Source: a virus
Lineage: Duplodnaviria; Heunggongvirae; Uroviricota; Caudoviricetes
DNA length: 17,058 nucleotides
Virus record (IMG/VR): IMGVR_UViG_2609460221_000007
Coordinates: 1 to 17,058 of that record
Direction: 5' to 3' (one strand)
Each line of letters opens with the position of its first letter. Within the stretch, counting starts at the first letter, position 1. Of the stretch, positions 304 through 17,058 are shown piece after piece. The notes below the pieces were generated by a model. It had not been told where the DNA came from. It saw only the letters and a program-made list of their open reading frames with translations, and searched no databases. The position numbers were made by a program, and so were the translations under genes.

Positions 304-318
304 TTGCCGGAGGCGCTT

Positions 319-711
319 ATGGCAAAAGTATTTACACCAGAAGAGCGGGAAGAAGTGAAGGCGCGCATTGTGGAATTCGTGCGCCTGAGCGGACGAGAAA
401 CTTTTCGACAACTGGCAGATAAAACGGGTGTCAGTAAGACCGCTATTCGTCGTTTATCTGGTGCGCTTGCGGCCAGTGGTGATGTCTGGCTCTCTGGTTG
501 CGGGGTATTTCCATCAGAGCAGGCGTATCGCGTATGGCGTAAGACACCGGAGAAGGCTGCTGACCCGACACTGATTCGAAAGTTACCTGACGGAGAAATA
601 CGTCGTTACAACAGACGGCAGAACATAATTTGTCGTGAGTGCCGCCAGAGCGAAGTCATGCAGCGTGTGCTGGCGTTCTATCGGGGAAACTTTCAGGAGG
701 TGATGGAGTGA
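319..711 (+). CDS. hypothetical protein with possible helix-turn-helix (…FRQLADKTGVSKTAIRRL…)
   Basis: ATG at 319 preceded by GGAGG (309-313). The ORF track extends to a TTG at 304, which is less likely. Stop TGA 709-711 overlaps the next start. Confidence 0.55.
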   Translation: MAKVFTPEEREEVKARIVEFVRLSGRETFRQLADKTGVSKTAIRRLSGALAASGDVWLSGCGVFPSEQAYRVWRKTPEKAADPTLIRKLPDGEIRRYNRRQNIICRECRQSEVMQRVLAFYRGNFQEVME

Positions 712-1004
712 GGGTGAGAGTTTATATTGCCGGTCCAATGACGGGATATGAAAATTTCAACCGTGAGGCGTTTCACAAGGCGGAAGAGGAACTGAAACGG
801 GAAGGGCATACCGTCTTAAACCCGGCAGTACTTCCGGACGGGCTGACACAGCCGCACTACATGGATATTTGCATGGCAATGATTCGTTGTGTGGATGCGA
901 TTTACATGCTGAATGGCTGGCAGCGGTCAGCGGGCGCTAAGGCAGAGCTGGCACTGGCGGAGAAACTGGGGCATGCGGTGATTTATCAGGAGGTGGCTCA
1001 ATGA
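708..1004 (+). CDS. DUF4406-like protein (nucleoside 2-deoxyribosyltransferase-like fold)
   Basis: GTG start at 708, 7 nt after AGGAGG (695-700), overlapping the upstream stop. N-terminal 'VYIAGPMTG' motif followed by 'NPA' and a conserved acidic C-terminal half, as recalled for DUF4406/NDT-like proteins. Confidence 0.5.
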   Translation: MRVRVYIAGPMTGYENFNREAFHKAEEELKREGHTVLNPAVLPDGLTQPHYMDICMAMIRCVDAIYMLNGWQRSAGAKAELALAEKLGHAVIYQEVAQ

Positions 1005-1462
1005 GAGAGGTTAACTATGAGGCGCTTCGTGAGGCAGCACAAAACTATCAGTCGACGCTGGCGTGGTATCAGGCTATCCCGGACAGNCCAAATGCTGAAC
1101 GGGATTGTGATGCGGCTCTTGCTGCGTTTAAGCGTCACATCCGTCATCGGGAAGCGGATATTATCGCTGATTTGCTGGATGGACTGGAAGAAGCAAAATC
1201 ACAACTCAACGAGCAGCGTGAGTATTACGAAGGCGTTATCTCTGATGGGAGTAAGCGTATTGCTGAACTGGAAGCGCGGGAAGTTCAATTACCGACTCGC
1301 TACGACCTTCGATATGGACACCCGATAAATGCAGATGAGCGACATGTCATGATACCTAAAGAAAATGGCAGTTGGCTTTACCTGATTGACCTAGAACACG
1401 CATTACGCGTCGCTGGCATTCGCATCAAAGGAGAGGAGCATGGAAATAAAACCAGAGGATGA
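1001..1462 (+). CDS. hypothetical protein (153 aa)
   Basis: ATG 1001 overlaps the upstream stop (ATGA); RBS AGGAGGTGG at 987-996. One ambiguous codon (n at 1087). Confidence 0.6.
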   Translation: MREVNYEALREAAQNYQSTLAWYQAIPDXPNAERDCDAALAAFKRHIRHREADIIADLLDGLEEAKSQLNEQREYYEGVISDGSKRIAELEAREVQLPTRYDLRYGHPINADERHVMIPKENGSWLYLIDLEHALRVAGIRIKGEEHGNKTRG

Positions 1463-1796
1463 GTTAAGCAATATCGTTTTATTTCCGGTAAAAGAGGATG
1501 ACCCTCGTAATCAGGTTAATTTTCTTTATGAGTCATCGGAAAGACCATATTGTCATCACGCCTCTGTTCGGGTTGACGAAAAAGAGCGTCAGGTCCGCTG
1601 TAAAATCTGCGGTGCAGTTGTGGAGCCGTTTGACTGGATGCTCTCTGTGGCGAAAAGAGAAACCAGACTGGCAGATGATGTAAGGCTATTGCGCCAGGAG
1701 GAACAGGAAAGGCGGAAAAATATAGAAAAGTTAATTCAGATTGAGCGTAACGCGAAAGCGCGGATATGCAGGGCGACAAAATCCAGAACTGAATAA
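1440..1796 (+). CDS. hypothetical protein with putative zinc-ribbon (C-HH…C-x2-C)
   Basis: ATG 1440 with RBS AAGGAGAGGAG (1428-1438); overlaps the 3' end of the upstream ORF by 23 nt; Cys/His cluster YCHH…CKICG. Confidence 0.55.
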   Translation: MEIKPEDELSNIVLFPVKEDDPRNQVNFLYESSERPYCHHASVRVDEKERQVRCKICGAVVEPFDWMLSVAKRETRLADDVRLLRQEEQERRKNIEKLIQIERNAKARICRATKSRTE

Positions 1797-1891
1797 TTAA
1801 ATTTAGCACTGTTAAAAATTTTATCCTTAACCGGAGGGATTTCTGCACCCTCAGAACATCAGGAGGCCGCCCGAAAGGGCGGTAATGAAAA

Positions 1892-2299
1892 ATGACTGAA
1901 TTAACAAAAGAGCAATTAATCGAAGAAGCCAAATTAAAAATAGCGATTGCGAAATGCCACACGAATTCAGGGATGGCACGGGTAGAGGGTGAGTTATTCA
2001 AAATTGCACTGGCATCGCTAGAAGCGGAACCGATAGCGTGGAAATGCGGCGAAAACATAATCCTGTTTAATCCTGACACAGTTGAAGCATACGCAAAACG
2101 TGCGGAGATATCACCTAAACCACTATTCGCAGCTCCACCTGTGCCGGTTGTGTCTGAAGGACTGGTTAAAGCCGTGCGCTTCTATGAAAAGGTTAAGCGT
2201 GAAAATCCGCCAGTCGAAACCGGAGCATGGAAAGACGCTGTTGACTGGGTGCTCAAAGAGGCCTGCCAGGTTGTAAACACTGGCATCAAAGGAGACTGA
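1892..2299 (+). CDS. hypothetical protein (135 aa); shares an 'EP(I/V)A(W/Y)…AAPPVPVVSE' region with the 328-aa protein at 2663-3649
   Basis: ATG 1892. An AGGAGG (1861-1866) is separated from the start by a GC hairpin (1867-1882). Stop 2297-2299 lies 1 nt before the next ATG. Confidence 0.6.
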   Translation: MTELTKEQLIEEAKLKIAIAKCHTNSGMARVEGELFKIALASLEAEPIAWKCGENIILFNPDTVEAYAKRAEISPKPLFAAPPVPVVSEGLVKAVRFYEKVKRENPPVETGAWKDAVDWVLKEACQVVNTGIKGD

Positions 2300-2300
2300 T

Positions 2301-2666
2301 ATGGCACTGACGAAAAAACAACGTGCAGAATTGCGCATGAAGTTTGGCGGTCGCTGTGCTTATTGCGGCTGTGAACTTGGCGAAAAGTGGCATGCAGACC
2401 ATGTAAAACCGGTCATTCGTTTTAATGGAAATATGCTTCACCAGGAACGTGACGATATATCCAACATGGTTCCGGCATGCCACCCATGCAATCTGCACAA
2501 GCATTGCAGTAGCCTGGAAGACTATCGGCGAATTATCAGTGATGGTCGTCGTGAATTCCTTGCGTCCGGGAAAGGCAAAGCGCTGGTTCGTATGGGATTG
2601 GTTGAAATGAAATCTGACCCGGTTGTGTTCTGGTTTGAAAAATATCAAGAAGGGGCTACAGCATGA
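2301..2666 (+). CDS. HNH endonuclease
   Basis: Canonical HNH motif directly visible in translation: C-A-Y-C-G…H-A-D-H-V-K-P…N-M-V-P-A-C-H-P-C-N-L-H-K. RBS AAAGGAGA (2288-2295). Confidence 0.8.
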   Translation: MALTKKQRAELRMKFGGRCAYCGCELGEKWHADHVKPVIRFNGNMLHQERDDISNMVPACHPCNLHKHCSSLEDYRRIISDGRREFLASGKGKALVRMGLVEMKSDPVVFWFEKYQEGATA

Positions 2667-3649
2667 CCACTATTACCAATAAGAAACAGTATCCCAGCGA
2701 GCAATATCTTAATGAGCTTATCACCAACATAGAGTTTGCTGCAAGGGCACCAGTTGAAGTCGTGAGCGCAATGGCAGCAGAGCTACAGAAGCGGCGCGAA
2801 GCTGATAGCGCAGAACCAGTTGCTTATATTTTCAAACATCCGGCCGGGAAATTATTCTGGGCTTTAACGGATGAAAGCAATAAAGAGCAAGCGGACGTTA
2901 TTCCTGTTTATGCCGCCCCTCCAGTGCCAGTAGTATCTGAAGAAAAACCAATGCCTAACCCTCTTAAAATGTACGCGGTCGATGATGTTGCCGCTATTGC
3001 AGAGGTGAGAGGCTGGAATGCCTACCGCGCCGCCATGCTTCAGAGTCAGGGGGAAGGCAACCCTCATGTAACCCCGGCTCGCCTGCCTGGTGGTTTCACC
3101 ATTGAGGATGCGAAGGTGTTACATGAAGACCTTGTACGTAGCCACATAAGCCAGGCTTTAAGTGGCGAAAAGATGAAAAAGAAAGATCGCGATGCTGATT
3201 TGCGCTGGATTCATGGCGTAATAGTTCAGGCCGCGTGGTTTGTAAAGGCATCACTGGAGCAGAATGCACTATCGGGCAACTCTCCGGTAATTCCTGGTGA
3301 GGTGTTGTCCGCAATCCGGGAGGTTGCCAGGATTCGCGCCGATTTCGATGATTTTGACGGTGACAGGCGAGGTATCGGTGATTGTCTGGATGAGGCCGAG
3401 CAAGAGCTTATCGTTACCATTAACAAATATGCCAGTCAGTTGGCAGTAGAGCCGGTAGTACCTGATGACGTTCTGGAACAGACAGTAGCGTCGCCAGCGC
3501 TAGGTAACCAGGTTAGCGAATTAACAATGTGGGTTAAACGACTGGTCAGTCAACTGAAAAAAGCTCAGCCGGACTGCAAATTACCGGAGAAGGCGATGGA
3601 TTACCTGAAACGAAATGGACTGATAAGCGTGGAGGATGTTTTACGATGA
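2663..3649 (+). CDS. hypothetical protein (328 aa); N-terminal region paralogous to the 1892-2299 product
   Basis: ATG 2663 overlaps the HNH stop (ATGA-type coupling). Long ORF with phage-like codon usage; contains the 'YAAPPVPVVSE' motif. Confidence 0.65.
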   Translation: MTTITNKKQYPSEQYLNELITNIEFAARAPVEVVSAMAAELQKRREADSAEPVAYIFKHPAGKLFWALTDESNKEQADVIPVYAAPPVPVVSEEKPMPNPLKMYAVDDVAAIAEVRGWNAYRAAMLQSQGEGNPHVTPARLPGGFTIEDAKVLHEDLVRSHISQALSGEKMKKKDRDADLRWIHGVIVQAAWFVKASLEQNALSGNSPVIPGEVLSAIREVARIRADFDDFDGDRRGIGDCLDEAEQELIVTINKYASQLAVEPVVPDDVLEQTVASPALGNQVSELTMWVKRLVSQLKKAQPDCKLPEKAMDYLKRNGLISVEDVLR

Positions 3650-3769
3650 ATATTTAGACTAAAGAGTTTGTAACGCTATGTAAGTGATTTTTTCTGGTTT
3701 AGATATTTATATGTCCGGCCAAATTGAGGTGTGTTTAAATGTTATTGCACATTGATTGTAGGGGGAATA

Positions 3770-3949
3770 ATGAAAAACGCATTGCAGTTTTTGTTTGTTG
3801 CGTTCTGGTTGTTCGCATCATGTATGCCCATCATCTTCACAGCAAGGTATATGGAAAAAATTGATGTTTTGATATTAATGTTTGGACATATAAATGCCCT
3901 TTTTTTAGGGGTGTTCATGGCGGTCATGTGCATTGAATACTGGCGGTAA
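3770..3949 (+). CDS. possible small two-helix membrane protein (59 aa)
   Basis: ATG 3770 preceded by GGGGGA (3761-3766); strongly hydrophobic translation (…LQFLFVAFWLFASCMPIIF… / …NALFLGVFMAVMCIEYW); AT-rich. Could be spurious. Confidence 0.3.
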   Translation: MKNALQFLFVAFWLFASCMPIIFTARYMEKIDVLILMFGHINALFLGVFMAVMCIEYWR

Positions 3950-4004
3950 ATACAGCGAACGCCATTGGTTTAGTTGGATATTTACTGTGCCGGACAAAAA
4001 CGGT

Positions 4005-4032
4005 TTGCGGGGAAATCTTAGTTAAGTAGAAT
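4005..4032 (+). promoter_or_regulatory. candidate sigma70 promoter for the hok transcript (TTGCGG -35, 16-nt spacer, TAGAAT -10)
   Basis: Hexamers read directly at 4005-4010 and 4027-4032; position is appropriate for a long hok leader. Not verified. Confidence 0.25.
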
Positions 4033-4151
4033 AACTGCGGGTGCTTGAGGCTATCTGTCTCAGGCATGAACACCAAAAGGCAGATAGAGAAAAGCCCCAG
4101 TTAACATTACGCGTCCTGCAAGACGCTTAACATTAATCTGAGGCCATATCT

Positions 4152-4211
4152 ATGCGACACATAGAGATTAGCCTCTTACGGACCGAAAGGTCAAGGAGAA
4201 GCAGGCTATGA
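4152..4211 (+). CDS. mok-like leader ORF translationally coupled to hok
   Basis: ATG 4152; 19 codons; stop TGA 4209-4211 overlaps the hok ATG (4208-4210). This is the arrangement expected for hok/mok loci. Confidence 0.3.
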   Translation: MRHIEISLLRTERSRRSRL

Positions 4212-4333
4212 AGCAGCAAAAGGCGATGTTAATCGNCCTGATCGTCATCTGTTTAACCGTCATAGTGACGGCACTGGTAACGAGGAAAGACCTCTGCGAG
4301 GTACGAATCCGAACTGGCAGACGGAGGCTCTGA
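4208..4333 (+). CDS. hok: Hok/Gef-family type I toxin (HokD/RelF-like)
   Basis: RBS AGGAGA (4193-4198); translation MKQQKAMLI(x)LIVICLTVIVTALVTRKDLCEVRIRTG… matches the Hok/Gef transmembrane core as recalled. The C-terminal tail as written (…RRRL*) differs from recalled homologues and may reflect a 1-nt indel or sequence error. Confidence 0.75.
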   Translation: MKQQKAMLIXLIVICLTVIVTALVTRKDLCEVRIRTGRRRL

Positions 4334-4415
4334 TTCGTAGACTACTAATCTGAGTAAAAGACCCAGCGGGGAAAGAACCACGCCGGGACTAGTTAATAAG
4401 ATATTTATAGCGTGG

Positions 4416-4757
4416 CTATTCTTTTTTTGCGGTATAGACTTTTTCGCCTGAGAAGTCTGGAGCTACCCAAAAGTTAATATTAAACTGAGCATCATCGCTT
4501 AGTTCAACACGGTGCCAGTATTGTGGTGGGCTTGTTGCAAAAGCGCCAGCATTAATGACTACTTTTATCTCCGGTTCAGTAGCATTCTCATCAGCAAAAC
4601 CATAATATGTTACAGTACCTTCCATCACGCATAACTGTCCAAAAACACCTGCTGCTGTATTATGATGTGTTAATAACGCTGAAGGTACGTTCTCTTTTGT
4701 GAAGAACGGAGTTGAGCGTTTGATTACCCAGTCTTTAGGAATTCTCTTGTGTGTCAT
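4416..4757 (-). CDS. YeaR-like / DUF1971 family protein (TehB-associated cupin-like domain)
   Basis: Start ATG (MTHKR…) preceded on the minus strand by GGGAGGTG. Translation shows RSTPFF…VMEGTVTYYGFADENATEPE…FNINFWVAP, closely paralleling the recalled E. coli YeaR pattern. Convergent with hok. Confidence 0.6.
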   Translation of the reverse strand: MTHKRIPKDWVIKRSTPFFTKENVPSALLTHHNTAAGVFGQLCVMEGTVTYYGFADENATEPEIKVVINAGAFATSPPQYWHRVELSDDAQFNINFWVAPDFSGEKVYTAKKE

Positions 4758-5124
4758 AACCACCTCCCATAAAACATGCATTATAAATGCACCTTTTTGA
4801 GGGTTATGTCAAGCTGTTATGAAACACATAATTGATATGTTGATTAGAGGAGAAGATAGAATCAATATGGTTGTTTTTCGTATAACTATTTGTTTTACTT
4901 TTAGTTTGTGCATTCTGTGTGTTAGGAATAACTTATTAAAGTTTAACTAAAAAATCTCGATATAGTCCGCATAGATTACTGTTACTGAATCTTATTGTGT
5001 GCATTAGTTGTGTTCTGAAATTTCAATTTAATTACTTATGATATATTTTTAACGATAAATGTTTTCCGGGTGAAAGACAGTGGGGGATGAGATAAGCAAT
5101 ATATCATTAATCTTGATTATTTCC

Positions 5125-5186
5125 AGGATGCCTTTACTGTGCATATAAATAAATCATATACGCATCAAATAATGTAAAGGCATCCT
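5125..5186. repeat. perfect 13-bp inverted repeat (AGGATGCCTTTAC … GTAAAGGCATCCT) with 36-nt AT-rich spacer
   Basis: Arms at 5125-5137 and 5174-5186 are exact reverse complements, read directly; lies in an ORF-free AT-rich region. Confidence 0.6.
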
Positions 5187-5625
5187 TTTAGATATATCTT
5201 ATCAAATGTTAATGATTTGAGTGGGAAACATGATTCCAGAAACTAATCATGCGGCTACTTTATAAAAATAATGCCCATATAAAACAGCCAGCGAAAAGGA
5301 TTACGGATAAAAAAGGAGCGAGATGTGCATAGTTGTTATTTTCCATGTTTAACCACCTTAAATAATTGATGATGACGGGATGTGCATCTGTAATGCTTTT
5401 GTTGAAATGTTATGATNAAAAAAGAACTTTTTCATAACATTAAAATGTAATTTATCTAATCGTTTTTAATAATAAGTGTTGTATTTCTATCCTTGTATCA
5501 GCTATTTGATATGTAGTGTTTGTTCATGTTATGTGGAGCTTTACACCATAGCCAGTTTATTTATACTTTATTCGTCAGCCTGAACAACTGGCATCTGCTG
5601 CACTGCGCCATCGAGAGATTGAGAA

Positions 5626-6225
5626 ATGGCGCATATACAACTGGTCAAACAAACCTCTTCTGGACTACTTCTCCCGGCGACGCCGGAGAGTTGCGATTTT
5701 TTGCATCAAATCAAAATAGGCGAGTGGATACACGCAGACTTTAAGCGTGTGCGTAACTACGCATTCCACAAGCGTTTTTTCAAACTCCTGCAACTGGGAT
5801 TCGATTACTGGACTCCGGTCGGTGGGGCGATCACGCCTCGCGAACGAAAGCTGGTTTCAGGATTCGTTGATTACCTATGTGAATCAGTAGGCCGGGAACA
5901 TACGCCAGCTCTGAGCGAAGCCGCAGAGCAATATCTGAATACAGTTGCGACACGCAGAACCCGGGATACGGCATTGCTAAAGTCGTTTGAGGCTTTCCGC
6001 GAGTGGGTAACCATTCAGGCCGGATTTTACACCGAGCATCTTTATCCTGATGGTAGCCATGGGCGTCGGGCGAAATCCATCGCTTTTGCGAATATGGACG
6101 AAACCGAGTTTCAGCAGGTTTATAAATCTGTTCTGAATGTGCTGTGGAACTGGATTCTGTTCCGTAAATTTTCCTCTCCGGAACAAGTCGAAAATGTGAC
6201 CGCGCAGCTGCTGGAGTTTGCGTAA
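5626..6225 (+). CDS. lambdoid nin-region protein (possibly DUF1367 family)
   Basis: 199-aa ORF immediately upstream of and abutting the ybcO-like gene; GC content returns to the phage-core level. Family assignment is from memory of the gene order in lambdoid prophages. Confidence 0.55.
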   Translation: MAHIQLVKQTSSGLLLPATPESCDFLHQIKIGEWIHADFKRVRNYAFHKRFFKLLQLGFDYWTPVGGAITPRERKLVSGFVDYLCESVGREHTPALSEAAEQYLNTVATRRTRDTALLKSFEAFREWVTIQAGFYTEHLYPDGSHGRRAKSIAFANMDETEFQQVYKSVLNVLWNWILFRKFSSPEQVENVTAQLLEFA

Positions 6226-6515
6226 TGGTGGATTTACGTAAAGCGGCGCGGGGGCAGATGTGCACCGTCAGAATTCCTGGCTACTGCAATCACGATCCGG
6301 AAACGTCTGTGCTGGCGCATTACCGACTGGCGGGAACGTGCGGAACAGCGACAAAACCACACGATATGCAGGCGGCGATTGCCTGTAGCTCATGCCACGA
6401 TCTAATCGACGGGCGGGTAAAAACCAGCGATTACACCAAAGAAGAATTACGCCTGATGCATGCAGAAGGTGTTTTTCGCACACAAGAAATCTGGAGAAAG
6501 GAGGGATATTTGTGA
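6225..6515 (+). CDS. YbcO-like (DUF1364) Cys-rich nin-region protein, putative nuclease
   Basis: 96 aa; Cys cluster (C-x…CNHDPETSVLAHYRL…C…CSSCHDLID) resembles the YbcO family as recalled; stop overlaps the Q start (GTGA). Confidence 0.6.
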   Translation: MVDLRKAARGQMCTVRIPGYCNHDPETSVLAHYRLAGTCGTATKPHDMQAAIACSSCHDLIDGRVKTSDYTKEELRLMHAEGVFRTQEIWRKEGYL

Positions 6516-7054
6516 TTTACCCAACGAATACAGGAAAAAGCGGAGAACACCTTCGTCTCGCCACGCTGGAAAGTGTCTGGATTCAGGGCAAACTGCGTAT
6601 GTGGGGGCGCTGGTCGTATATTGGCGGTGGCAGGTCAGGAAATATGTTCAATCAGTTGTTGGCATCCAAAAAATTGACGAAAACAGCCATCAATGAAGCC
6701 CTGCGCAGAATGAAAAAAGCGGGAATAGAGAAAGCTGAGCTGGAAGCGTTTTTGCGAGAGATGATCAACGGCAAGCAAAAGAGCTGGCTGGCGCATTGTA
6801 CTGATGCAGAGGCGTTATGTATTGATCGAGTCATAAGTGAGGTGCTGGCAGAGCATCCTGGATTGATTAGTGTCCTCCGGCAACGGTATGAAGGACGGGG
6901 GATGACTAAGCGCAAAATGGCTGAATTGCTAAATGATGCACATCCTGAGTGGTGTTTTAGCACATGCGAAAAGCGAATTGCTAATTGGTTGGCTGTTGCT
7001 GAGTATGCCCTATATATTCCCATGCGAGAATCATTTGCTCAAAAAATAGCTTGA
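6512..7054 (+). CDS. late-gene antiterminator Q-like protein
   Basis: GTG start 6512 preceded by GGAGGG; position immediately upstream of a promoter/terminator region and the lysis cassette; basic, Cys-containing protein. The call is mainly positional. Confidence 0.55.
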   Translation: MIYPTNTGKSGEHLRLATLESVWIQGKLRMWGRWSYIGGGRSGNMFNQLLASKKLTKTAINEALRRMKKAGIEKAELEAFLREMINGKQKSWLAHCTDAEALCIDRVISEVLAEHPGLISVLRQRYEGRGMTKRKMAELLNDAHPEWCFSTCEKRIANWLAVAEYALYIPMRESFAQKIA

Positions 7055-7138
7055 TTTTTTACGCATAAACTGCTTCAATTCCGGTATGCTTCGCAAAGCT
7101 GTATCGCGAGGCGAACCAAGCGCATGAACTTTACCAGA

Positions 7139-7166
7139 ACCCGCCATTGAGCGGGTTTTGTTGTTT
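7139..7166 (+). terminator. tR'-like intrinsic terminator downstream of Q
   Basis: Stem AACCCGC/GCGGGTT with 6-nt loop (cattga), followed by TTTTGTTGTTT, about 85 nt after the Q stop. This is the arrangement expected for the pR'/tR' late regulatory region. Confidence 0.55.
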
Positions 7167-7275
7167 CTGGTACTGGTGAACCTGATGTTTCATTTCTGGA
7201 GCGCGATTCCTGGCGGAATACCTAGAATCGAGACATTCTGGTAAAATTGTTTTCAGTACAGGATGTGGAGGTGAG

Positions 7276-7845
7276 ATGAGAGAACTACCTAAAGATTATT
7301 TTTTAGGAGTAGATGATGAGCTCGTCGATTATCTTGAAAAACAAGGGGAAGAGACGATACGAGAGATTCATCTTTCTAACAAAACCAATGTTGAGAATGG
7401 ATACAAACTTCTGAACATTCAGATTGTTGGAATTGGTTCATCTTTTTTATTGCTGACACAGAAAACTAATTTCGATTTTCTCACCGCCGGAATTACCACA
7501 TTTACATTACTATGGACATGGTGCGCCATTTACTTGGTATGTACTGGTTTATCTGTGAAGGTTAGGGGCCTGATCAATGCCCCTCCTGATCATCTATATC
7601 ATGAAAAATATAAGGATATGGAGCCCTCGAGCTTTAAAATATTCGCTGATGCAGGATATTTAGGACCTGATAAGTTATTGCCGCTTATACGAAGGTATCG
7701 CCTTGTTGACTTGAGTGATACAGCAAGAGAGTTACTGTTGGAAAATGAGAAAATCCGCACGAGTCTCGATAAAGCAAGGATGTATACCATCCTTGCTCCG
7801 GTAGCGGCGATGTTTATCTCGGCTGTTTTTTTATATGTTCAATGA
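7276..7845 (+). CDS. uncharacterised 189-aa membrane protein (three predicted TM helices); cargo gene in the Q-S position
   Basis: ATG 7276 with GGAGG upstream; AT-rich relative to flanking phage genes; hydrophobic segments IVGIGSSFLLL, AGITTFTLLWTWCAIYLVCTGL and C-terminal ILAPVAAMFISAVFLYV. No recognisable family. Confidence 0.6.
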   Translation: MRELPKDYFLGVDDELVDYLEKQGEETIREIHLSNKTNVENGYKLLNIQIVGIGSSFLLLTQKTNFDFLTAGITTFTLLWTWCAIYLVCTGLSVKVRGLINAPPDHLYHEKYKDMEPSSFKIFADAGYLGPDKLLPLIRRYRLVDLSDTARELLLENEKIRTSLDKARMYTILAPVAAMFISAVFLYVQ

Positions 7846-8068
7846 CTGAGTCGGCAGAATCTCCAACAAAAACACGACGTGTAGCAAAGTCTGTAGTACT
7901 TTGTGTTGGAGTTGGTTTTGGTGCCACGGGTTGCTGAGGTTTATTTTCACCTTGTGGTTTGTTTTTTCAGANCATAAAAATCCTCTTTGTTTGAATTGTT
8001 ACTTTTGGCGATTTAACGATATCAAACACGAGTATATACCGCCAGAAGCTTAATCTGGCACTCCATCT

Positions 8069-8094
8069 GGCCCCGGCATGTCCCGGGGCTTTTT
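8069..8094 (+). terminator. intrinsic terminator between the cargo gene and the holin
   Basis: GC stem GCCCCGG/CCGGGGC with 6-nt loop followed by TTTTT (8090-8094); read directly. Confidence 0.65.
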
Positions 8095-8192
8095 CGTTGT
8101 TAGGCTCTGGAAACATCCTCGACTTCTTGTTAGCAAGCCTGAGAGCCTGAATCTTACACTTAGCACCATCCGAACTCTCGGAGGTGAGGCTT

Positions 8193-8534
8193 ATGAAAAT
8201 GCACAATGCCCCTCATTCCTGGCCTGACTTACTGGAACTCTTACAAAGTTGGTGGCGTGGAGATACGCCGCTGGGTGCAGTGGTTATGTCAATTATTATG
8301 GCTGGTTTGCGCATTGCCTATTTTGGCGGTGGCGGCGGCTGGAAACGAAAAACGCTTGAGATTCTGCTTTGTGGTGCTCTGACGCTGACCTTTGCATCCG
8401 CGCTTGAGTATGTCGGATGGCCTAAATCACTTTCTGTTGCCATTGGTGGTGGGGTGGGGCTGATTGGTGTTGATGCTATTCGTGGTGCGGCAATGAGGGT
8501 CATCGGTAACAAGTTCGGTGCCCATAAGGAGTAA
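8193..8534 (+). CDS. S: holin, lambda S family, with Met-Lys-Met dual-start motif
   Basis: GGAGG (8180-8184) then ATG-AAA-ATG (8193/8199); translation has the three hydrophobic segments and charged C-terminus of lambda S; directly upstream of the R endolysin. Confidence 0.85.
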   Translation: MKMHNAPHSWPDLLELLQSWWRGDTPLGAVVMSIIMAGLRIAYFGGGGGWKRKTLEILLCGALTLTFASALEYVGWPKSLSVAIGGGVGLIGVDAIRGAAMRVIGNKFGAHKE

Positions 8535-8537
8535 TTA

Positions 8538-9014
8538 ATGCAGACACTTAATTCCCAGCGTAAAGCTTTCCTTGATATGGTGGCATGGTCAGAAGGAACA
8601 GATAACGGACGGCAGAAAACCAGAAATCACGGTTATGATGTTATTGTCGGTGGCGAACTGTTCACTGATTACTCCGATCACCCCCGCAAACTTGTCACGC
8701 TAAATCCGAAACTCAAATCAACAGCCGCTGGACGTTACCAGCTTCTTTCACGCTGGTGGGATGCCTACCGCAAGCAACTTGGCCTGAAAGATTTTTCTCC
8801 AGAAAGTCAGGATGCTGTAGCGCTGCAGCAGATTAAAGAGCGTGGCGCTTTGCCGATGATTGATCGCGGTGATATCCGTCAGACTATCGACCGTTGCAGC
8901 AATATATGGGCTTCACTGCCGGGCGCTGGTTATGGTCAGTTCGAGCATAAGGCTGACAGTCTGATTGCAAAATTCAAAGAAGCTGGCGGAACGGTCAGAG
9001 AGATTGAGGTATGA
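8538..9014 (+). CDS. R: endolysin, lambda R-type lytic transglycosylase
   Basis: Translation (…[47 protein letters not shown]…) is near-identical to lambda R as recalled; RBS AAGGAG. Confidence 0.9.
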
Positions 9015-9484
9015 GCAGAGTAACCGCGATTATCTCCGCTCTGGTTATCTGCATCGTCGTCTGCCTGTCATGGGGTGTTAATCATTACCGTGATAACGCC
9101 ATCGCCTACAAAGAACAGCGCGACAAAAATGCCAGAGAACTGAAGCTGGCGAACGCGGCAATTACTGACATGCAGATGCGTCAGCGTGATGTTGCTGCGC
9201 TCGATGCAAAATACACGAAGGAGTTAGCTGATGCGAAAGCTGAAAATGATGCTCTGCGTGATGATGTTGCCGCTGGTCGTCGTCGGTTGCACATCAAAGC
9301 AGTCTGTCAGTCAGTGCGTGAAGCCACCACCGCCTCCGGCGTGGATAATGCAGCCTCCCCCCGACTGGCAGACACCGCTGAACGGGATTATTTCACCCTC
9401 CGGGAACGACTGGTAATGATGCAGGCCCAACTTGAAGGTGCTCAGCAATACATAACCGAGCAGTGTTTNAAAGTAAAATCTTAA
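9011..9484 (+). CDS. Rz: i-spanin Rz
   Basis: N-terminal TM segment then coiled-coil periplasmic domain, near-identical to lambda Rz as recalled; an ambiguous base at 9468 makes the exact stop uncertain. Confidence 0.85.
9231..9416 (+). CDS. Rz1: o-spanin Rz1 lipoprotein, embedded in the +1 frame of Rz
   Basis: Lipobox LVVVGC followed by a proline-rich segment ([15 protein letters not shown]), near-identical to lambda Rz1 as recalled; lies entirely inside Rz. Confidence 0.85.
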
Positions 9485-9613
9485 CTACAATATGATTCAT
9501 TTTGATGATTGTTTCATAAGGAACAGTGAAGTAAGATCTAAGAGGAGTTAAATTTTATACAGTATAATCATAATATTGCAGCAAGGTGGTTATAATTGAA
9601 AGAATATTTAGAT

Positions 9614-11074
9614 ATGAATACATCTCATGTAAGAGTTGTTACTCATATGTGTGGGTTCCTGGTTTGGCTCTATAGTCTTTCAATGTTGCCACCAATGGTT
9701 GTAGCATTGTTTTATAAAGNAAAAAAGCCTGTTCGTTTTCTTTATAACTTTCGTTATATTTTTTTGCATTGGTGGCGGAGCGTGGTATACAACTAAGAAA
9801 TCTGGCATTCAATTACGTANCCGTGATGGGTTTATTATAATTGTAATGTTTTGGATTTTGTTTTCTGTTATTAGTGCATTCCCTTTATGGATTGACTCAG
9901 AACTTAATTTAACGTTCATTGATGCTCTGTTTGAAGGGGTTTCTGGAATAACAACAACAGGAGCAACTGTAATTGATGATGTTAGTTCATTACCTCGGGC
10001 ATATTTGTACTATCGGTCACAGTTAAATTTTATAGGTGGTTTAGGAGTTATTGTTCTGGCGGTTGCTGTATTGCCATTATTGGGTATTGGTGGTGCAAAG
10101 CTTTATCAGTCAGAAATGCCGGGGCCATTTAAGGATGACAAACTCACTCCCCGCCTGGCCGATACGTCACGGACACTGTGGATAACTTATTCTTTATTAG
10201 GTATTGCTTGTATTGTCTGTTATAGACTTGCAGGAATGCCTTTGTTTGATGCTATTTGTCACGGGATTTCCACAGTTTCGCTTGGTGGTTTCTCAACTCA
10301 TAGCGAGAGTATCGGATATTTTAATAACTATTTGGTTGAGCTGGTGGCTGGTTCTTTTTCCCTGCTATCGGCTTTCAACTTCACTCTTTGGTATATTGTT
10401 ATTAGCAGGAAAACGATAAAACCTTTAATCAGAGATATTGAACTTCGTTTCTTTCTGTTAATAGCCTTAGGGGTGATCATTGTTACCTCTTTCCAGGTCT
10501 GGCATATAGGTATGTATGACTTGCATGGAAGTTTTATTCATTCGTTTTTTCTTGCCAGCTCCATGCTCACTGATAATGGTTTAGCTACGCAGGATTATGC
10601 AAGTTGGCCCACGCACACGATAGTGTTTTTGCTGTTGTCAAGTTTCTTTGGGGGATGTATAGGTTCAACTTGTGGTGGAATTAAGTCACTTCGATTTCTT
10701 ATACTTTTCAAACAAAGCAAACACGAGATAAATCAGCTTTCTCATCCCAGAGCGTTGTTGAGTGTAAATGTAGGAGGGAAGATAGTTACAGATCGTGTAA
10801 TGAGGTCTGTATGGAGTTTCNTTTTTTCTTTATACTCTCTTCACGGTGTTTTTTATACTGGTGTTAAATGGTATGGGATATGATTTTCTTACATCATTTG
10901 CAACAGTGGCTGCATGTATTAATAATATGGGATTAGGTTTTGGGGCTACTGCATCGTCATTCGGAGTGCTTAATGACATTGCAAAATGTTTAATGTGCAT
11001 AGCTATGATTCTTGGTCGCCTTGAAATTTATCCTGTTATTATATTGTTTTCAGGNTTTTTTTTGGCGCTCCTAA
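9614..11074 (+). CDS. trkG: potassium uptake protein TrkG (Trk system membrane component); reading frame interrupted only at ambiguous bases
   Basis: Three consecutive ORF fragments (frames shift at n 9720, n 10821, n 11055, each in a homopolymer run) together translate to a TrkH/TrkG-type polytopic transporter starting MNTSHVRVV… and ending …FFWRS* when the frame is corrected. AT-rich. Known cargo of Rac-type prophages. Confidence 0.8.
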
Positions 11075-11160
11075 TATATGGCTGATTTATAATTGTGAGT
11101 TTAATATTATGTTGACTCACTCATTGATCCAATACCTAACTTTACCAGCAACACCTCCGT

Positions 11161-11195
11161 CCCCAGTAGCACTGGCTGCTGGGGTGCGTTTTATT
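11161..11195 (+). terminator. putative terminator after trkG
   Basis: 10-bp stem CCCCAGTAGC/GCTGCTGGGG (one G-U) with ACTG loop, followed by TGCGTTTTATT; the U-tract is offset by 4 nt, so strength is uncertain. Confidence 0.4.
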
Positions 11196-11211
11196 CATAA
11201 AGCAAGGCTGT

Positions 11212-12003
11212 ATGAGCGAGAAATTAAAGATAGTCTATCGCCCATTACAAGAATTGTCACCGTATGCGCACAACGCCAGGACGCACAGTACTGAGCAGGT
11301 GGCACAACTGGTAGAAAGTATTAAGCAATTCGGCTGGACTAATCCGGTGCTGATTGACGAAAAGGGCGAAATTATTGCGGGTCACGGTCGTGTTATGGCG
11401 GCTGAAATGCTCAAAATGGATTCTGTTCCGGTCATTGTTCTGTCTGGCCTGACGGATGAGCAGAAAAAGGCGTACCGCCTGGCAGATAATCGCCTGCCGA
11501 TGAATGCTGGCTGGGATGAAGATCTGTTGCGGATGGAGCTGTCGGACCTAATCAATGCTGATTTTGATGTCTCCCTGACAGGCTTCATCCCGACAGAAAT
11601 TGATGAACTGTTGACGGATGTTTTGCCCGGTACAGGAAATGAGGAGGAGCCGTATACGACGAAAATTGATACGCCTGTTTATGAGCCGTCGGGCGGTAAA
11701 CCGGATATCAGTGAACTGTACGACGATACGAAAACTCAGGAGCTGATCAGCCGGATACGTTCGGCGTCCCTTGAGCCTGATATTGAGAAATTCCTCCTGT
11801 GTGCGGCAGAACGTCACACGGTGTTTAATTTCAGCAGAATTGCGGACTATTACGCTCACGCCCCCTCTGAAATTCAGTGTTTTTTCGAGGAGTCGGCGCT
11901 GGTGATCATTGATTATCAGCAGGCTATTGAAAATGGATTTGTCCGGATGACGCAGCGCATGGTGGAGATCATGCATGGTGGTGAGGAGGAGGAATATGCG
12001 TGA
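11212..12003 (+). CDS. ParB-like nuclease domain (ParB/Srx N-terminal domain) protein
   Basis: N-terminal region with the characteristic …PVLIDEKGEIIAGHGRVMAA… ParB-N motif; acidic C-terminus; stop overlaps the next start. Confidence 0.75.
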   Translation: MSEKLKIVYRPLQELSPYAHNARTHSTEQVAQLVESIKQFGWTNPVLIDEKGEIIAGHGRVMAAEMLKMDSVPVIVLSGLTDEQKKAYRLADNRLPMNAGWDEDLLRMELSDLINADFDVSLTGFIPTEIDELLTDVLPGTGNEEEPYTTKIDTPVYEPSGGKPDISELYDDTKTQELISRIRSASLEPDIEKFLLCAAERHTVFNFSRIADYYAHAPSEIQCFFEESALVIIDYQQAIENGFVRMTQRMVEIMHGGEEEEYA

Positions 12004-12928
12004 TGATTTTTGCGCCTTTATTCTGACTCACGGGCGACCGGACAAAGTTCTGACTTACCGGACGTTGCGTCGTGCTGGCTATACCGGGAAAATTTTTATC
12101 GTTGTTGATGATGAAGATAAGACACGGCATCAGTACATGGCTGAATTTGGGGAACAGGTGCTGGTGTTTTCCAAAGCCGATATCGCCAGTCGTTTTGACG
12201 AAGCCGATAATTTCTGTGACCGCCGCTCAATTTTTTACGCCCGTAATGCCTGTTTCGACCTGGCAAAACTGGTCGGGTGTAAATACTTCATTCAGCTCGA
12301 TGATGATTATCACGAGTTCCAGTTTCGGGTGGATCGCAACTATGACCAGGCCTATTTTCCGATAAGGAAACTGGATGCGATCCTTTCTGAAATGCTGGCG
12401 TACTACGAATCAATACCTGCTCTTTCCATCGCTATGTCGCAGGGCGGGGATTTTCTTGGTGACAATGGCGGCCATGCTTCGTGGGTGAAACGCAAGGCAA
12501 TGAACAGCTTTATCTGTTCGGTTGAACGACCGTTCTCATTCATGGGGCGCATTAACGAGGATGTGAATACGTACACGAATCTCGGTCGCTGTGGTGAATT
12601 GTTTATGACGATCGGTGCTGTCCAGTTAGGGCAGAAACAGACGCAGAAAAACAGCGGCGGAATGACCGAGCTGTATCTGGATTCCGGAACCTACGTTAAA
12701 AGTTTTTACTCCGTCATGTATGCGCCGTCGTGCGTAAAAATCTCACTGATGGGTGCCAGCCATAAACGCATTCACCATCAGGTCACCTGGAACAACGCTG
12801 CAGTAAAAATCCTTCACGAAAAATACAGGAAGAAGACACCCTGCATATCAATGGGGGTGACAAATGATTCCGTATTCGAAAGTCGAGTCTCTGGCAGCGT
12901 GCCGGATGACTGCACAACAAATCGCTGA
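11996..12928 (+). CDS. GT-A-fold glycosyltransferase-like protein (nucleotide-sugar transferase-like, DxD motif)
   Basis: ATG 11996 preceded by GGAGGAGG, overlapping the ParB-like stop (ATGCGTGA). Translation shows AFILTHGRP…IFIVVDDED…FIQLDDDY, the beta-strand/DxD pattern of GT-A enzymes; no TM segments. Function inferred from motif only. Confidence 0.55.
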   Translation: MRDDFCAFILTHGRPDKVLTYRTLRRAGYTGKIFIVVDDEDKTRHQYMAEFGEQVLVFSKADIASRFDEADNFCDRRSIFYARNACFDLAKLVGCKYFIQLDDDYHEFQFRVDRNYDQAYFPIRKLDAILSEMLAYYESIPALSIAMSQGGDFLGDNGGHASWVKRKAMNSFICSVERPFSFMGRINEDVNTYTNLGRCGELFMTIGAVQLGQKQTQKNSGGMTELYLDSGTYVKSFYSVMYAPSCVKISLMGASHKRIHHQVTWNNAAVKILHEKYRKKTPCISMGVTNDSVFESRVSGSVPDDCTTNR

Positions 12929-13115
12929 CGTTCTGGATGTTGATCTGAACCGACTGAAAGAAAATCGGGAAGCAATGACAGATTTTTATGCGGCCATCCG
13001 TAAGGGCAGAGCGAAAGGTGAAGCCGAGTTACGAGCGGCATTGTTTAAGCTTGCCAGAAAAGGGGATGCCTTTGCTCTGCGCGAACTACTCAGGGTGGAT
13101 AAAAATCAGGACTAA
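12864..13115 (+). CDS. small hypothetical protein, possible HTH (…MTAQQIADVLDVD…)
   Basis: ATG 12864 preceded by GGGGGTG; overlaps the 3' end of the upstream gene by 65 nt (an alternative start ATG at 12906 would reduce this); stop abuts the TerS start. Confidence 0.45.
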   Translation: MIPYSKVESLAACRMTAQQIADVLDVDLNRLKENREAMTDFYAAIRKGRAKGEAELRAALFKLARKGDAFALRELLRVDKNQD

Positions 13116-13118
13116 CTG

Positions 13119-14213
13119 ATGAGCAGACCGGACTGGGGGGCGTTGCAGCAGGAGTATATTGCTGAATACACCCGCTCCGGTATATCTCCGGTGGCATGGT
13201 GTGAAGCAAGGGGACTGAATTACGCAACAGCCCGTCGTTACATCAAAAAAACTCCGAAAAATGCGCAGACAGAAATGTGCAAAACTGCGCAAAAAAGTGC
13301 GCAGAAAAAATCTGCGCAGACTGCACAAAAGCGGAACGAAAAATCTCAGGAAAAAAAGCCAGTATTCGATGCGGGCCTGAATGAGGGCGACGCGGAGGAA
13401 TTTTCGTTCTGTCCCGATGAATTCGGCATTTCTGACCAGCAGGCTAAGTTTGCGATGCTTGTTGCTCAGGGTAAAAAGCCGACAGAGGCGTACCGACTAG
13501 CCGGTTATGAGGGGCAAGGTGCGACAGCTAATAGCAACGCCAGTCGTATGCTTAGAAATGCCAGGGTTTTTCGCGCTATCAGCTACTTCCGCAATCAGTA
13601 CCAGAAACGCTATACCGCAGACCTGGATTTACTAGTGAGTCAGTTGATGGCCATTGTCCTGGCCGACCCCAATCAGCTTGCACAATTTCGCCGTGTTAAC
13701 TGCCGTTATTGCTGGGGCGAGAATCATCTCTACCAGTGGCGCGATATAGCAGAATTCGACAAGGCAGCGGCGCAGGCTTCCAGAGATGGCAAACCCGAAC
13801 CGGAATATGGANGCCTCGGCTTTGTTGATAACGCCATACCCAATCCGGACTGCCCGAAGTGCTGCGGTGAGGGAACGGGACAGCTTTATATGGCTGATAC
13901 CACTCTGCTTGATGGGGATGCGCGGCAATTATATGCAGGGGCAAAATTCGGAAAATTCGGCGTTGAGATCCTGCTGGAGGATAAGGCTGCCGCCCGGCGT
14001 GAATTGTTGCGTTTGCTTTCTGCTGGCGGGGCTTTATGTGCAGATAAGCGGCTACAGGAACTGGAAATTGAACGGCGCAGAATGGAAAACCAGAAGCTGC
14101 GCAAAGAGATCGAAACGGTGGAAGATAATGAACATCCCCAGCCTGTGGCGATCAATATTAATGTGGTTGATGCCAGAGTAAGGAGTGATGAAGATGATCT
14201 CTCCGACGCTTAA
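13119..14213 (+). CDS. terminase small subunit (Terminase_2-like core with N-terminal HTH and C-terminal CxxC…CxxC zinc-ribbon/coiled coil)
   Basis: Core …AKFAMLVAQGKKPTEAYRLAGYEGQGATANSNASRMLRNARVFRAISYF… is typical of phage TerS; immediately upstream of the large terminase; one ambiguous codon (n 13811). Confidence 0.7.
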   Translation: MSRPDWGALQQEYIAEYTRSGISPVAWCEARGLNYATARRYIKKTPKNAQTEMCKTAQKSAQKKSAQTAQKRNEKSQEKKPVFDAGLNEGDAEEFSFCPDEFGISDQQAKFAMLVAQGKKPTEAYRLAGYEGQGATANSNASRMLRNARVFRAISYFRNQYQKRYTADLDLLVSQLMAIVLADPNQLAQFRRVNCRYCWGENHLYQWRDIAEFDKAAAQASRDGKPEPEYGXLGFVDNAIPNPDCPKCCGEGTGQLYMADTTLLDGDARQLYAGAKFGKFGVEILLEDKAAARRELLRLLSAGGALCADKRLQELEIERRRMENQKLRKEIETVEDNEHPQPVAININVVDARVRSDEDDLSDA

Positions 14214-15495
14214 TGTGCCTCAGGCGCGATTTCTTTCAATGCCCCATAAATTTAAAGCCTATATTGCTGGTTTTGGCTCGGGCAAAACATGGGTTGGGTG
14301 TGGCGGCATATGCAAGGGGATTTGGGAGCATCCAGGTATAAATCAGGGATATTTTGCGCCAACGTATCCCCAAATTCGCGATATTTTTTACCCTACAGTG
14401 GAAGAAGTTGCTGCTGACTGGGGATTGAACGTAAAAATTAATGAGGGAAATAAAGAGGTTCACTTTTATTACGGACGCCAGTATCGGGGAACCACTATCT
14501 GCAGATCGATGGAGAAGCCACAAACGATCGTCGGTTTCAAAATTGGTAATGCGTTGGTGGATGAACTGGACATTTTGCCGAAGGAAAAAGCCAGAACGGC
14601 GTGGCGCAAGATAATTGCACGTATGCGTTATAAGATTGATGGACTTCGCAACGGTATTGACGTTACAACCACGCCGGAAGGATTCAAATTTGTCTACGAG
14701 CAGTTTGTTAAAGCCGTGCGTGAAAAAACAGAGCTGGCCTCACTGTATGGTCTGGTGCAGGCATCTACTTTCGATAATGAAAAGAACCTGCCAGCAGATT
14801 ACATTCCTTCGCTTCTTGAATCATACCCTCCAGAGCTGATTAAAGCCTATCTTCGAGGACAGTTTACTAACCTGACAAGTGGTACTGTTTACCATCAGTT
14901 TGACCGGAAACTGAATAATTGCGAAGAAGTGGAGCAGCCAGGGGAGCCGATTTATATTGGGATGGATTTTAACGTTGGAAAGATGGCGGGAATCGTCCAT
15001 GTGCTGCGTTTGGGGCTTCCATGTGCGGTAACTGAAATCATCAATGCCTACGATACGCCGGATATGATCCGCATCATTAAAGAACGCTTCTGGCTGTATG
15101 ATGGGAATGATTACCGGAAAGTGAGGGAAATTTATATTTATCCAGATGCTTCCGGGGATTCCAGAAAATCAAGTAACGCAAGTACGACGGATATAGCCCA
15201 GCTTAAGCAGGCTGGTTTTAACGTTGTGGTGAACAGCTCGAACCCGCCAGTAAAAGATCGCGTTAACTCAATGAATGCAATGTTCTGCAATGCCAATGGT
15301 GAGCGTCGCTATAAAGTTAATGTGAAGCGTTGCCCGTTATATGCCGAATCTCTGGAGCAACAGGTCTGGGATGAGAAGGGGGAGCCTGATAAAAAATCTG
15401 GCAATGATCACCCGAATGATGCCGGAGGTTATTTCATCGTTAAGCAATTCCCTATTGTCAAACCGACCGGAAGAGTCACATCACTTCGGATTTAA
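14194..15495 (+). CDS. terminase large subunit
   Basis: Walker A-like AGFGSGKTW near the N-terminus, acidic nuclease-like C-terminal half; start chosen at ATG 14194 (8 nt after AGGAG); in-frame alternatives at 14185 or 14188. Confidence 0.85.
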   Translation: MISPTLNVPQARFLSMPHKFKAYIAGFGSGKTWVGCGGICKGIWEHPGINQGYFAPTYPQIRDIFYPTVEEVAADWGLNVKINEGNKEVHFYYGRQYRGTTICRSMEKPQTIVGFKIGNALVDELDILPKEKARTAWRKIIARMRYKIDGLRNGIDVTTTPEGFKFVYEQFVKAVREKTELASLYGLVQASTFDNEKNLPADYIPSLLESYPPELIKAYLRGQFTNLTSGTVYHQFDRKLNNCEEVEQPGEPIYIGMDFNVGKMAGIVHVLRLGLPCAVTEIINAYDTPDMIRIIKERFWLYDGNDYRKVREIYIYPDASGDSRKSSNASTTDIAQLKQAGFNVVVNSSNPPVKDRVNSMNAMFCNANGERRYKVNVKRCPLYAESLEQQVWDEKGEPDKKSGNDHPNDAGGYFIVKQFPIVKPTGRVTSLRI

Positions 15496-15497
15496 TT

Positions 15498-17058
<1,561 letters not shown>

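Follow-up and report, generated by a model that had tools for sequence, protein, structure and literature searches.

A convergent two-gene cassette in the Q-holin interval of a lambdoid prophage, encoding a predicted membrane protein with remote likeness to PycTM effectors

The DNA analyzed here, hereafter the window, is a viral stretch of 17,058 nt (IMG/VR record IMGVR_UViG_2609460221_000007, positions 1 to 17,058). It was recognized as part of a Rac/Gifsy-like lambdoid prophage of Escherichia coli, covering its regulatory and late genes. The interval between its Q-like antiterminator gene and its holin gene was studied. An earlier interpretation made from the letters alone, i.e., the sequence-only reading, had described a single cargo gene there, a 189-aa open reading frame (ORF). 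The position of this ORF was confirmed by a DUF1133/phrog_753 gene upstream and a TIGR01594 holin gene downstream. The single-gene description has to be revised, because a convergent, overlapping small ORF is always present, so the unit consists of two genes. That reading had also passed over the promoter-like motifs and a second hairpin inside the interval. Window 7171-8098 is probably a self-contained two-gene accessory cassette (moron) placed between a Q-linked leader with its terminator and the holin gene. It opens with a promoter-like motif and the large gene, continues with the convergent small gene and the promoter-like motif belonging to it, and closes with a hairpin and a terminator (Table 1). 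As judged from sequence, the cassette is a moron in which a PycTM-like membrane effector is wired with a second gene in a new way.

Table 1. Features of the Q-holin interval and its borders (window positions).
Feature	Position	Strand	Basis or detail
Q-like late-gene antiterminator, DUF1133 family	6512-7054	+	Pfam DUF1133, E = 1e-106; context, outside the cassette
Q-linked leader with tR'-like intrinsic terminator, left boundary of the cargo	7055-7170	+	Fold, scan match, leader common to other prophages
Upstream terminator	Core stem 7139-7144/7151-7156, T-rich tail to 7166	+	-18 kcal/mol, z = -3.9; scan match
-10-like motif GGTAAAAT (hexamer TAAAAT, 7242-7247), candidate promoter of the 189-aa gene	7240-7247	+	29-34 nt 5' of the ATG, past the terminator
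189-aa predicted inner-membrane protein, phrog_11870	7276-7845	+	ATG start; GGAGGTGAG upstream at 7267-7275
Convergent small ORF, 53 aa in reference genomes (MSEKNKPQGENKPQQPVAPKPTPTQSTTDFATRRVFVGDSADSVIEHIKKQPR), phrog_14506	7814-7975	-	32-nt overlap with the 3' end of the 189-aa gene
Shine-Dalgarno sequence of the small ORF (GAGGA, minus strand)	7982-7986	-	CAT and CCTC/CTCC columns conserved in a 10-locus alignment
Nearly invariant non-coding block, candidate promoter of the small ORF	8005-8026	-	8024-8016 reads TGATATCGT; predicted start near 8009
Hairpin 1 (GCCAGA/TCTGGC), structure conserved	8041-8059	+	Fold
Strong intrinsic terminator, right boundary of the cassette	8069-8094	+	Stem 8069-8090, 8 pairs (7 G-C), T5 at 8090-8094
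Lambda-family holin	8193-8534	+	TIGR01594, E = 5e-41; PF05106; context

The 189-aa protein was assigned as a full-length member of phrog_11870, a family annotated as of unknown function, to which all of the aligned family members (54/54) also belong. The gene is real, conserved, and under purifying selection, i.e., pN/pS was 0.08-0.14 in close pairs. The family forms approximately 100 clusters at 50% identity, nearly all of 160-200 aa. Its members come mostly from Enterobacterales, where they are spread across prophages, and all are annotated as hypothetical. The protein had been said to match no known family. This holds for Pfam (E ≤ 0.1), NCBIfam, and PADLOC (E ≤ 1), but not for PHROG, given the full-length membership in phrog_11870. 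No holin or antiholin family was matched in Pfam or NCBIfam. Searches of PDB sequences, whether by the protein or by the family profile, returned noise only. In the literature library that was searched, no paper mentioned the protein, phrog_11870 or phrog_14506, or a cyclase-less PycTM pair.

An AlphaFold2 model of the protein, built with 40 sequences, reached a pLDDT of 83 and showed helices at residues 14-62, 68-92, and 134-188. Three hydrophobic helices are predicted at approximately 45-62, 68-92, and 169-188, in agreement with the number proposed earlier. The segments at about 68-92 and 169-188 passed the Kyte-Doolittle threshold of 1.6 over 19 residues. Residues 45-61 stayed below the threshold in the scan; a hand count gave a mean of about 1.7 over 17 residues, and homologues are more hydrophobic there. 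The acidic N-terminal helix and the central part, 93-167, are predicted to be cytoplasmic. The chain would then run from a cytoplasmic N-terminus through a membrane hairpin and a cytoplasmic domain to a C-terminal anchor. This topology fits the loop of five residues that separates hydrophobic segments one and two, and the K/R-rich character of 93-167. Conserved positions are grouped in five parts of the protein. Three of these are the acidic helix (F9, D13, D14, L20, E21, Q23, G24, and E25), a polar collar ahead of the first hydrophobic helix (S34, N35, N38, E40, G42, and K44), and helices 1 (G52-x-G54-S-S) and 2 (W80 and A84). The fourth is P104-x-x-L-Y, and the fifth comprises R139-R140-x-R142-L, N157, and P175.

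The convergent small ORF corresponds to RefSeq WP_152948782.1 and was also placed by metagenome gene callers. Trimmed to the conserved ATG and Shine-Dalgarno sequence, the small proteins have 47-64 aa, and their family, phrog_14506, is annotated as of unknown function. They are hydrophilic, rich in Pro, Lys, and Gln, and follow the pattern MS(E/Q)xNKP...KPQ..P...DF(S/T)xxR(V/M)xVGDSA(D/E)xxxKKxK. The frame was the only one of six open in all of the genome loci (11/11), and pN/pS was 0.10-0.38 in close pairs. By these sequence signatures, the small ORF is a real gene under purifying selection at the protein level.

The link between the two genes is tight. The small ORF accompanied every one of 30 distinct homologues in IMG/VR viral contigs, with an overlap of 20-35 nt, and was likewise constant in the 11 genome loci, which is the co-occurrence expected of a toxin-antitoxin pair. 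A related small peptide was also found beside homologues at 27% (L014) and 31% (L032) identity. Every small-protein relative in the phage database neighbours the large gene. In GC-rich distant relatives of the large gene, ORFs that abut its 3' end (L016 1274-1381, L029 6535-6780, and L025 6641-6778, minus strand) have in common a Pro-rich P-x-P-x-P-(I/E)-R-R pattern. The convergent small partner may thus extend well beyond Enterobacterales.

In the window itself, the small ORF is broken. Its start adjoins an A7/T7 homopolymer, and with six T residues at 7962-7967 in place of seven the frame is shifted after codon 4; in addition, position 7972 is an N. The closest genome, E. coli WP4-W18-ESBL-09 (AP022069), shows the same one-base deletion and has no annotated small ORF there, whereas most genomes have T7. 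The interruption is either a sequencing artefact at the homopolymer or a real loss, and the T6/T7 tract could be a site of slippage-prone on/off variation if it is not an error. If the loss is real, the small protein is not indispensable.

The gene had been placed in the Q-S slot of Shiga-toxin genes, and other prophages show that this Q-holin interval is a variable cargo slot. A stretch of 105-116 nt directly after Q, which includes the terminator, is common to other E. coli prophages with the same Q type, and different cargo follows the same leader. In prophages that were inspected, tRNA-Thr/Gly and a small hypothetical gene were found; at the same junction in O157:H7, the cargo comprises tRNAs, TerB, DUF3927, and a SASA (NanS-p-like) esterase. 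The cargo start was set at about 7171, because only the leader and terminator after Q are common to other prophages. Shorter pieces of this leader match many more prophages, and some part of the query interval was matched in 1445 of 5426 E. coli genomes. At least 80% of the interval was present in 223 of the 5426 complete genomes (approximately 4%). As in other morons, the cassette is present or absent among related phages at one junction and its base composition is unlike that of the surrounding phage genes. The GC content was 0.389 for the 189-aa gene (GC3 0.358) and 0.409 for the whole cassette, versus 0.47-0.52 for the Q, holin, endolysin, and Rz genes, so the AT-rich character noticed at the outset was confirmed.

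Homologues were found in the same slot in Pantoea, Serratia, Morganella, Trabulsiella, Yersinia, Leclercia, and phage vB_Apl-pPE4. Slots were counted over 80 IMG/VR loci. A Q homologue, i.e., of the DUF1133, PF06530, or PF03589 type, was located upstream in 60 loci and a holin or endolysin gene downstream in 67. Both were present in 57 loci and at least one of them in 70, which agrees with the Q-S position suggested for the gene. Three Q families, six or more holin types, and several types of endolysin accompany the cassette. When GTDB representative genomes were scanned with a narrow alignment, only eight loci were obtained. Nearly all phrog_11870 members with usable context are phage-borne. 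In phage vB_Apl-pPE4 (L030 3501-5057), TerB and a small ORF stand between the cassette and the holins, so several cargo units can stack in the Q-holin slot. The record of this phage is labelled as an Actinobacillus phage, and the E. coli DUF1133 leader is shared at 95% identity.

The pair was also found outside the Q-holin slot. In another lambdoid phage, a copy was placed in the immunity region in the order cI (with an S24 peptidase domain), Bro-N, and the pair, with Cro and CII divergent. A third copy was located in a tail-gene cluster that also holds other morons, adjoining a Rha-like gene and a lipoprotein gene. Both copies lie behind a terminator and a TAAAAT motif. Immunity and tail regions are classic positions of exclusion, defence, and accessory genes expressed in lysogens. 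Because the pair occurs there as well, it appears to work as an autonomous unit, independent of a particular holin or Q. In the immunity-region copy (L032 6700-6770), the small gene has a promoter-like sequence, TTGTTA-17-TATAAT on the minus strand, flanked by two operator-like copies of TTATAAGTTGTGGT(T/A)ACAA. A ribbon-helix-helix gene stands just 5' of this region on the same strand. This arrangement suggests that the small gene of that phage is under repressor control.

The terminators reported on both sides, i.e., at 7139-7166 and 8069-8094, were supported by fold, conservation, and covariation. For the downstream one, compensatory changes were found in 7 of 11 pairs among 11 loci from different genera, and similarity between loci stops after its T-run. 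An own downstream terminator of this kind is a further mark of morons. A consensus scan of 6500-8700 returned two terminator-like sites, and 2.1 would be expected by chance from shuffled sequence; the terminators are therefore credited for conservation, covariation, and position, not for their count.

Promoter-like motifs were found ahead of both genes. The motif GGTAAAAT was conserved in 8 of 12 aligned loci, and a TAAAAT-like hexamer was located 30-40 nt 5' of the ATG in 22 of the 30 distinct modules. On the minus strand, the invariant columns of the 8005-8026 block are exactly the T, G, T, A, T, G, and T of the extended -10 pattern TGnTATnGT. This pattern lies 38-45 nt 5' of the small-ORF ATG in 27 of the 30 modules. 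By their sequence, the TAAAAT (+) and TGnTATnGT (-) motifs may act as promoters. Since both genes have such conserved motifs, the cassette is probably an autonomous moron and not a purely Q-gated one. The proposal that Q antitermination gates the gene is accordingly kept in part, i.e., a terminator does precede the gene, but the conserved TAAAAT lies past that terminator and the cassette also occurs in regions without Q.

Of the two hairpins at the 3' side, hairpin 1 keeps its stem in other loci with different sequence, e.g., GCCGCC...GGCGGC; RNAalifold retained only three of its pairs. No RNA family was found by Rfam in 7000-8250, even at E ≤ 10. The conserved block with the two hairpins was considered as a Pas-like or other known prophage small RNA (sRNA). 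This idea gained no support, as none of the megablast matches covered just the 3' portion of the interval. An sRNA derived from the plus-strand 3'-UTR is conceivable.

A link to known effectors was found through distant members of the family. In a PADLOC scan of the 54 aligned members, homologue P0129 matched the PycTM model PDLC02364 (E = 1.5e-08, residues 17-182 versus model positions 7-152 of 160) and the CBASS "Effector 2TM" model (E = 4e-05). P0184 (5.5e-4) and P0127 (0.011) also matched the PycTM model, and P0129 has a precomputed Pfam match to PF18967 (PycTM). P0129 was aligned to the subfamily of the window by hhalign with a probability of 99.4%, E = 2.5e-21, and 31% identity over 171 columns. 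Unrelated membrane families were matched by family members at E of about 2e-3 to 2e-2. Against this background, the PycTM match of P0129 is well above composition noise, even when corrected for 54 tests. Transitively through P0129, phrog_11870 is a remote relative of the PycTM/2TM membrane effectors that serve Pycsar and CBASS. In Pycsar, PycTM acts as the effector at the membrane and is described as disrupting membrane integrity once cyclic pyrimidines activate it (PMC11224242). The 189-aa protein was not filed as a Pycsar effector, because it has no direct model match and no adjacent cyclase. It probably works like PycTM at the membrane under a different control, as far as sequence likeness can tell.

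A distant chromosomal member, P0199 (181 aa, from a GC-rich organism; L025 2930-6546), lies 1.2 kb downstream of a Guanylate_cyc-TPR gene, not adjacent to it. No other cyclase was seen close to a member of the family, and the proximity may be a coincidence.

The cassette was compared with other known systems. PycTM (PF18967; PDLC02364) and the CBASS 2TM effectors are, like the predicted phrog_11870 design, all-helical, membrane-embedded proteins of about 160-190 aa. By analogy, loss of membrane integrity would be the expected activity of the cassette protein (PMC11224242). Unlike in those systems, no pyrimidine cyclase or CD-NTase adjoins the cassette in any locus; its partner is a convergent 50-aa ORF, and it lies in a phage moron slot instead of a defence island. 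With lambdoid morons, promoter-gene-terminator units such as HK97 gp15, lambda bor/lom, and stx, the cassette has in common presence or absence at a fixed junction, deviant composition, a downstream terminator, and an upstream promoter-like motif. It occupies the Q-S slot of stx and, in addition, immunity and tail slots. It differs from these morons as two convergent overlapping genes, not one, and no sequence relation of the 189-aa protein to any characterized moron product was found in Pfam, PHROG, NCBIfam, or PADLOC.

The pairs txpA/RatA and bsrG/SR4 of Bacillus subtilis prophages are type I pairs, in which the gene of a membrane protein is met by a convergent transcript overlapping at the 3' ends. 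The same layout in a prophage is seen in the cassette. However, its membrane protein is three times larger, has conserved parts predicted to be cytoplasmic, and shows no sequence similarity to these toxins, and its antisense transcript encodes a conserved peptide. Lambda RexB, P22 SieA/SieB, and T4 Imm are also small inner-membrane proteins from accessory slots of temperate phages, and the gene of P0129 lies downstream of cI as rexAB does. No similarly annotated match to exclusion proteins (SieA, SieB, Imm, and HK97 gp15) was found in Pfam (E ≤ 0.1, including the SieB family if that library contains it) or in PHROG. The prophage defences Tai, Tab, and GiPD474 from the literature were considered and set aside as unrelated in position or domain content.

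The reading tentatively favoured is that the large gene encodes a membrane-active effector, which the small convergent gene restrains and which serves defence or exclusion. It is supported because the cassette is a unit, both genes are selected, the unit looks autonomous and mobile, and an effector link exists via P0129. The analysis demonstrates the gene pair, how it is conserved and bounded, its movement among phage slots, and its remote homology; the promoters, the topology, the antagonism of the two genes, and the phenotype are inferred. In the lysogen, both genes would be transcribed at low level from their own weak convergent promoters. The transcript of the large gene would run to the terminator at 8094 and would therefore be fully antisense to the small-gene mRNA, and the small-gene transcript would be fully antisense to the 3' portion of the large-gene mRNA. 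The membrane effector would be kept inactive or silent by the small protein, the antisense RNA, or both. The strong terminator at 8069-8094 would shield the holin and lysis genes, and the cell, from read-through of the cassette promoters.

During late lytic growth, Q-modified polymerase would pass both terminators. Sense transcripts would then dominate the region, and the promoter on the minus strand would be occluded. More effector mRNA would be made and the convergent small gene would be suppressed. The balance could likewise be upset by infection, if the incoming phage stops host transcription or brings a compatible Q. The released effector would permeabilize or depolarize the inner membrane, and the outcome could be abortive infection, exclusion of competitors, or a push towards lysis. 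The earlier guess of abortive infection or superinfection exclusion thus gains indirect support from the remote homology to PycTM/2TM effectors. A bolder form of the proposal is that of a previously undescribed, portable two-gene anti-phage or addiction system of lambdoid phages. In it, a cyclase-less PycTM-like effector would be controlled by a convergent 50-aa disordered protein and an antisense RNA in place of a nucleotide messenger, and Q read-through would flip the pair. This form is rated as doubtful.

Several observations weigh against the favoured reading. The 189-aa protein itself matched no PycTM model (Pfam E ≤ 0.1, PADLOC E ≤ 1), so the link is a transitive one. Hydrophobic proteins can give inflated scores, and the Pfam scan made here reached only E = 0.016 for one member. 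Fold searches with the protein model returned generic helical bundles only. No cyclase or other sensor was found adjacent, either in 19 kb of RefSeq annotation around the gene or where homologue neighbourhoods carry Pfam annotation. A convincing -35 was not seen for the candidate promoters, which are motif matches only. The literature search found no expression, toxicity, or phage-challenge data for the phrog_11870 family. In the window and in AP022069, the small ORF is frameshifted beside an intact large gene; this weighs against an indispensable protein antitoxin, unless the homopolymer was misread in sequencing or the antisense RNA is the decisive product.

The closest rival, which follows the sequence-only reading, is a purely late, Q-gated lytic accessory. 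The 189-aa protein would be made only after Q antitermination and would act in the final minutes of infection, e.g., in superinfection exclusion, membrane energization, or tuning of holin triggering, and the small antisense gene would only keep the lysogen free of leaky expression. In every Q-holin locus, the large gene points in the direction of late transcription and lies approximately 200-230 nt after Q of any family. In 4 of the 12 aligned loci the TAAAAT motif is absent and the gene directly follows the terminator, as if purely Q-dependent, which counts for this rival and against the effector reading. A membrane-depolarizing protein would be expected to trigger holins, and one of the 54 members weakly matched a holin PHROG (E = 0.0028). 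This explanation is nevertheless rated as rather unlikely, as the pair also stands in immunity and tail regions, each time behind its own terminator and TAAAAT motif, and is not tied to any holin or endolysin family. A terminator between the large gene and the holin gene is typical of independently expressed morons, and the adjacent holin already has a dual-start antiholin motif. The holin begins with ATGAAAATG at 8193-8201, i.e., the Met-Lys-Met dual start of the lambda S107/S105 arrangement, so the lysis cassette already has its own antiholin. For this reason, and because at least six unrelated holin types accompany the cassette, the role of antiholin or lysis-timing partner was rejected, and the lysis-timing modulator of the sequence-only reading is unlikely as a dedicated antiholin.

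It is also conceivable, with low probability, that the pair is a selfish addiction module, in which a membrane toxin and a small antagonist or antisense RNA stabilize the prophage or the cassette without any role in defence or lysis. The convergent, 3'-overlapping layout with a membrane protein recalls txpA/RatA and bsrG/SR4, the cassette moves as a unit, and hok/sok is encoded in the same prophage. However, the presumed toxin, with 189 aa and conserved parts predicted to be cytoplasmic, is unlike type I toxins of less than 60 aa, and the small ORF is selected at the protein level, not at the RNA level only. Variants with a frameshifted small ORF and an intact large gene do not fit this explanation either. 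Equally improbable is a membrane protein of lysogenic conversion outside phage conflict, acting, e.g., in ion or stress physiology or in envelope modification, in which the PycTM likeness would reflect a common helical scaffold and the small ORF would be an unrelated regulator. It agrees with the potassium transporter gene trkG, carried as cargo just past the lysis genes of the same prophage, with a fold that reveals no function, and with one distant member in an ordinary chromosomal neighbourhood. Set against it are the phage-borne context of almost all members, the defence effectors as sole annotated relatives, and the strict coupling to a small convergent ORF, which suggests control of a harmful activity.

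If the reading as a membrane-permeabilizing effector is true, the cassette would be a PycTM/2TM-type effector without a cyclase, controlled by a small convergent gene. It would widen the range of known wirings for abortive-infection effectors and would add one more recurrent cargo to the Q-S slot, the slot of Shiga toxin. The pair is also a compact natural example of convergent overlapping genes in an antiterminated operon, suited to the study of transcriptional interference.

The surroundings of the cassette are those of a lambdoid prophage. A near-identical stretch was found in E. coli 7/2 (NZ_CP023820). Its first part was annotated in the order ydaT, ydaV, KilA-N, Hok, DUF1971, DUF1367, DUF1364 (YbcO), and DUF1133. 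After DUF1133, two hypothetical proteins, the second on the minus strand, a lambda-family holin, a GH24 lysozyme, and Rz follow, and then trkG, a ParB-like gene, and terminase. In the window, a GH24 endolysin gene and then Rz likewise lie 3' of the holin gene. The antiterminator gene belongs to phrog_753, "anti-termination protein Q-like", and corresponds to a RefSeq CDS in L001 (8458-9000); it also gave a borderline Phage_antitermQ match (E = 5e-6, 26.8 bits versus a cut-off of 26).

The first 59-61 nt past the DUF1133 stop (7055-7115) match at approximately 91-95% in many more E. coli genomes, K-12 DH5alpha included. This segment probably holds the late promoter and the Q-loading site of the DUF1133-type Q. 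The late promoter was not located confidently, as the sole scan match, 6989-7018, falls inside Q; TTGATT-17-TTCAAT at 7051-7079 is a weak candidate.

An Rfam sok match (106.7 bits) was found at window 4039-4210, and a Hok/Gef CDS was placed at about 4209-4334 by comparison with L001. With hok/sok at 4039-4334, the same prophage carries a second membrane-toxin/antisense module. The region 5000-5600, between the DUF1971 gene and DUF1367, is very AT-rich (GC of about 0.30) and has no annotated gene. In strain RM10740, an IS1 lies between the DUF1971 and DUF1367 genes. The potassium uptake gene trkG lies as cargo between Rz and the packaging genes, at about 9596-11085, as in Rac. Its frame in the window is broken up by N bases at 9720, 9820, 10821, and 11055.

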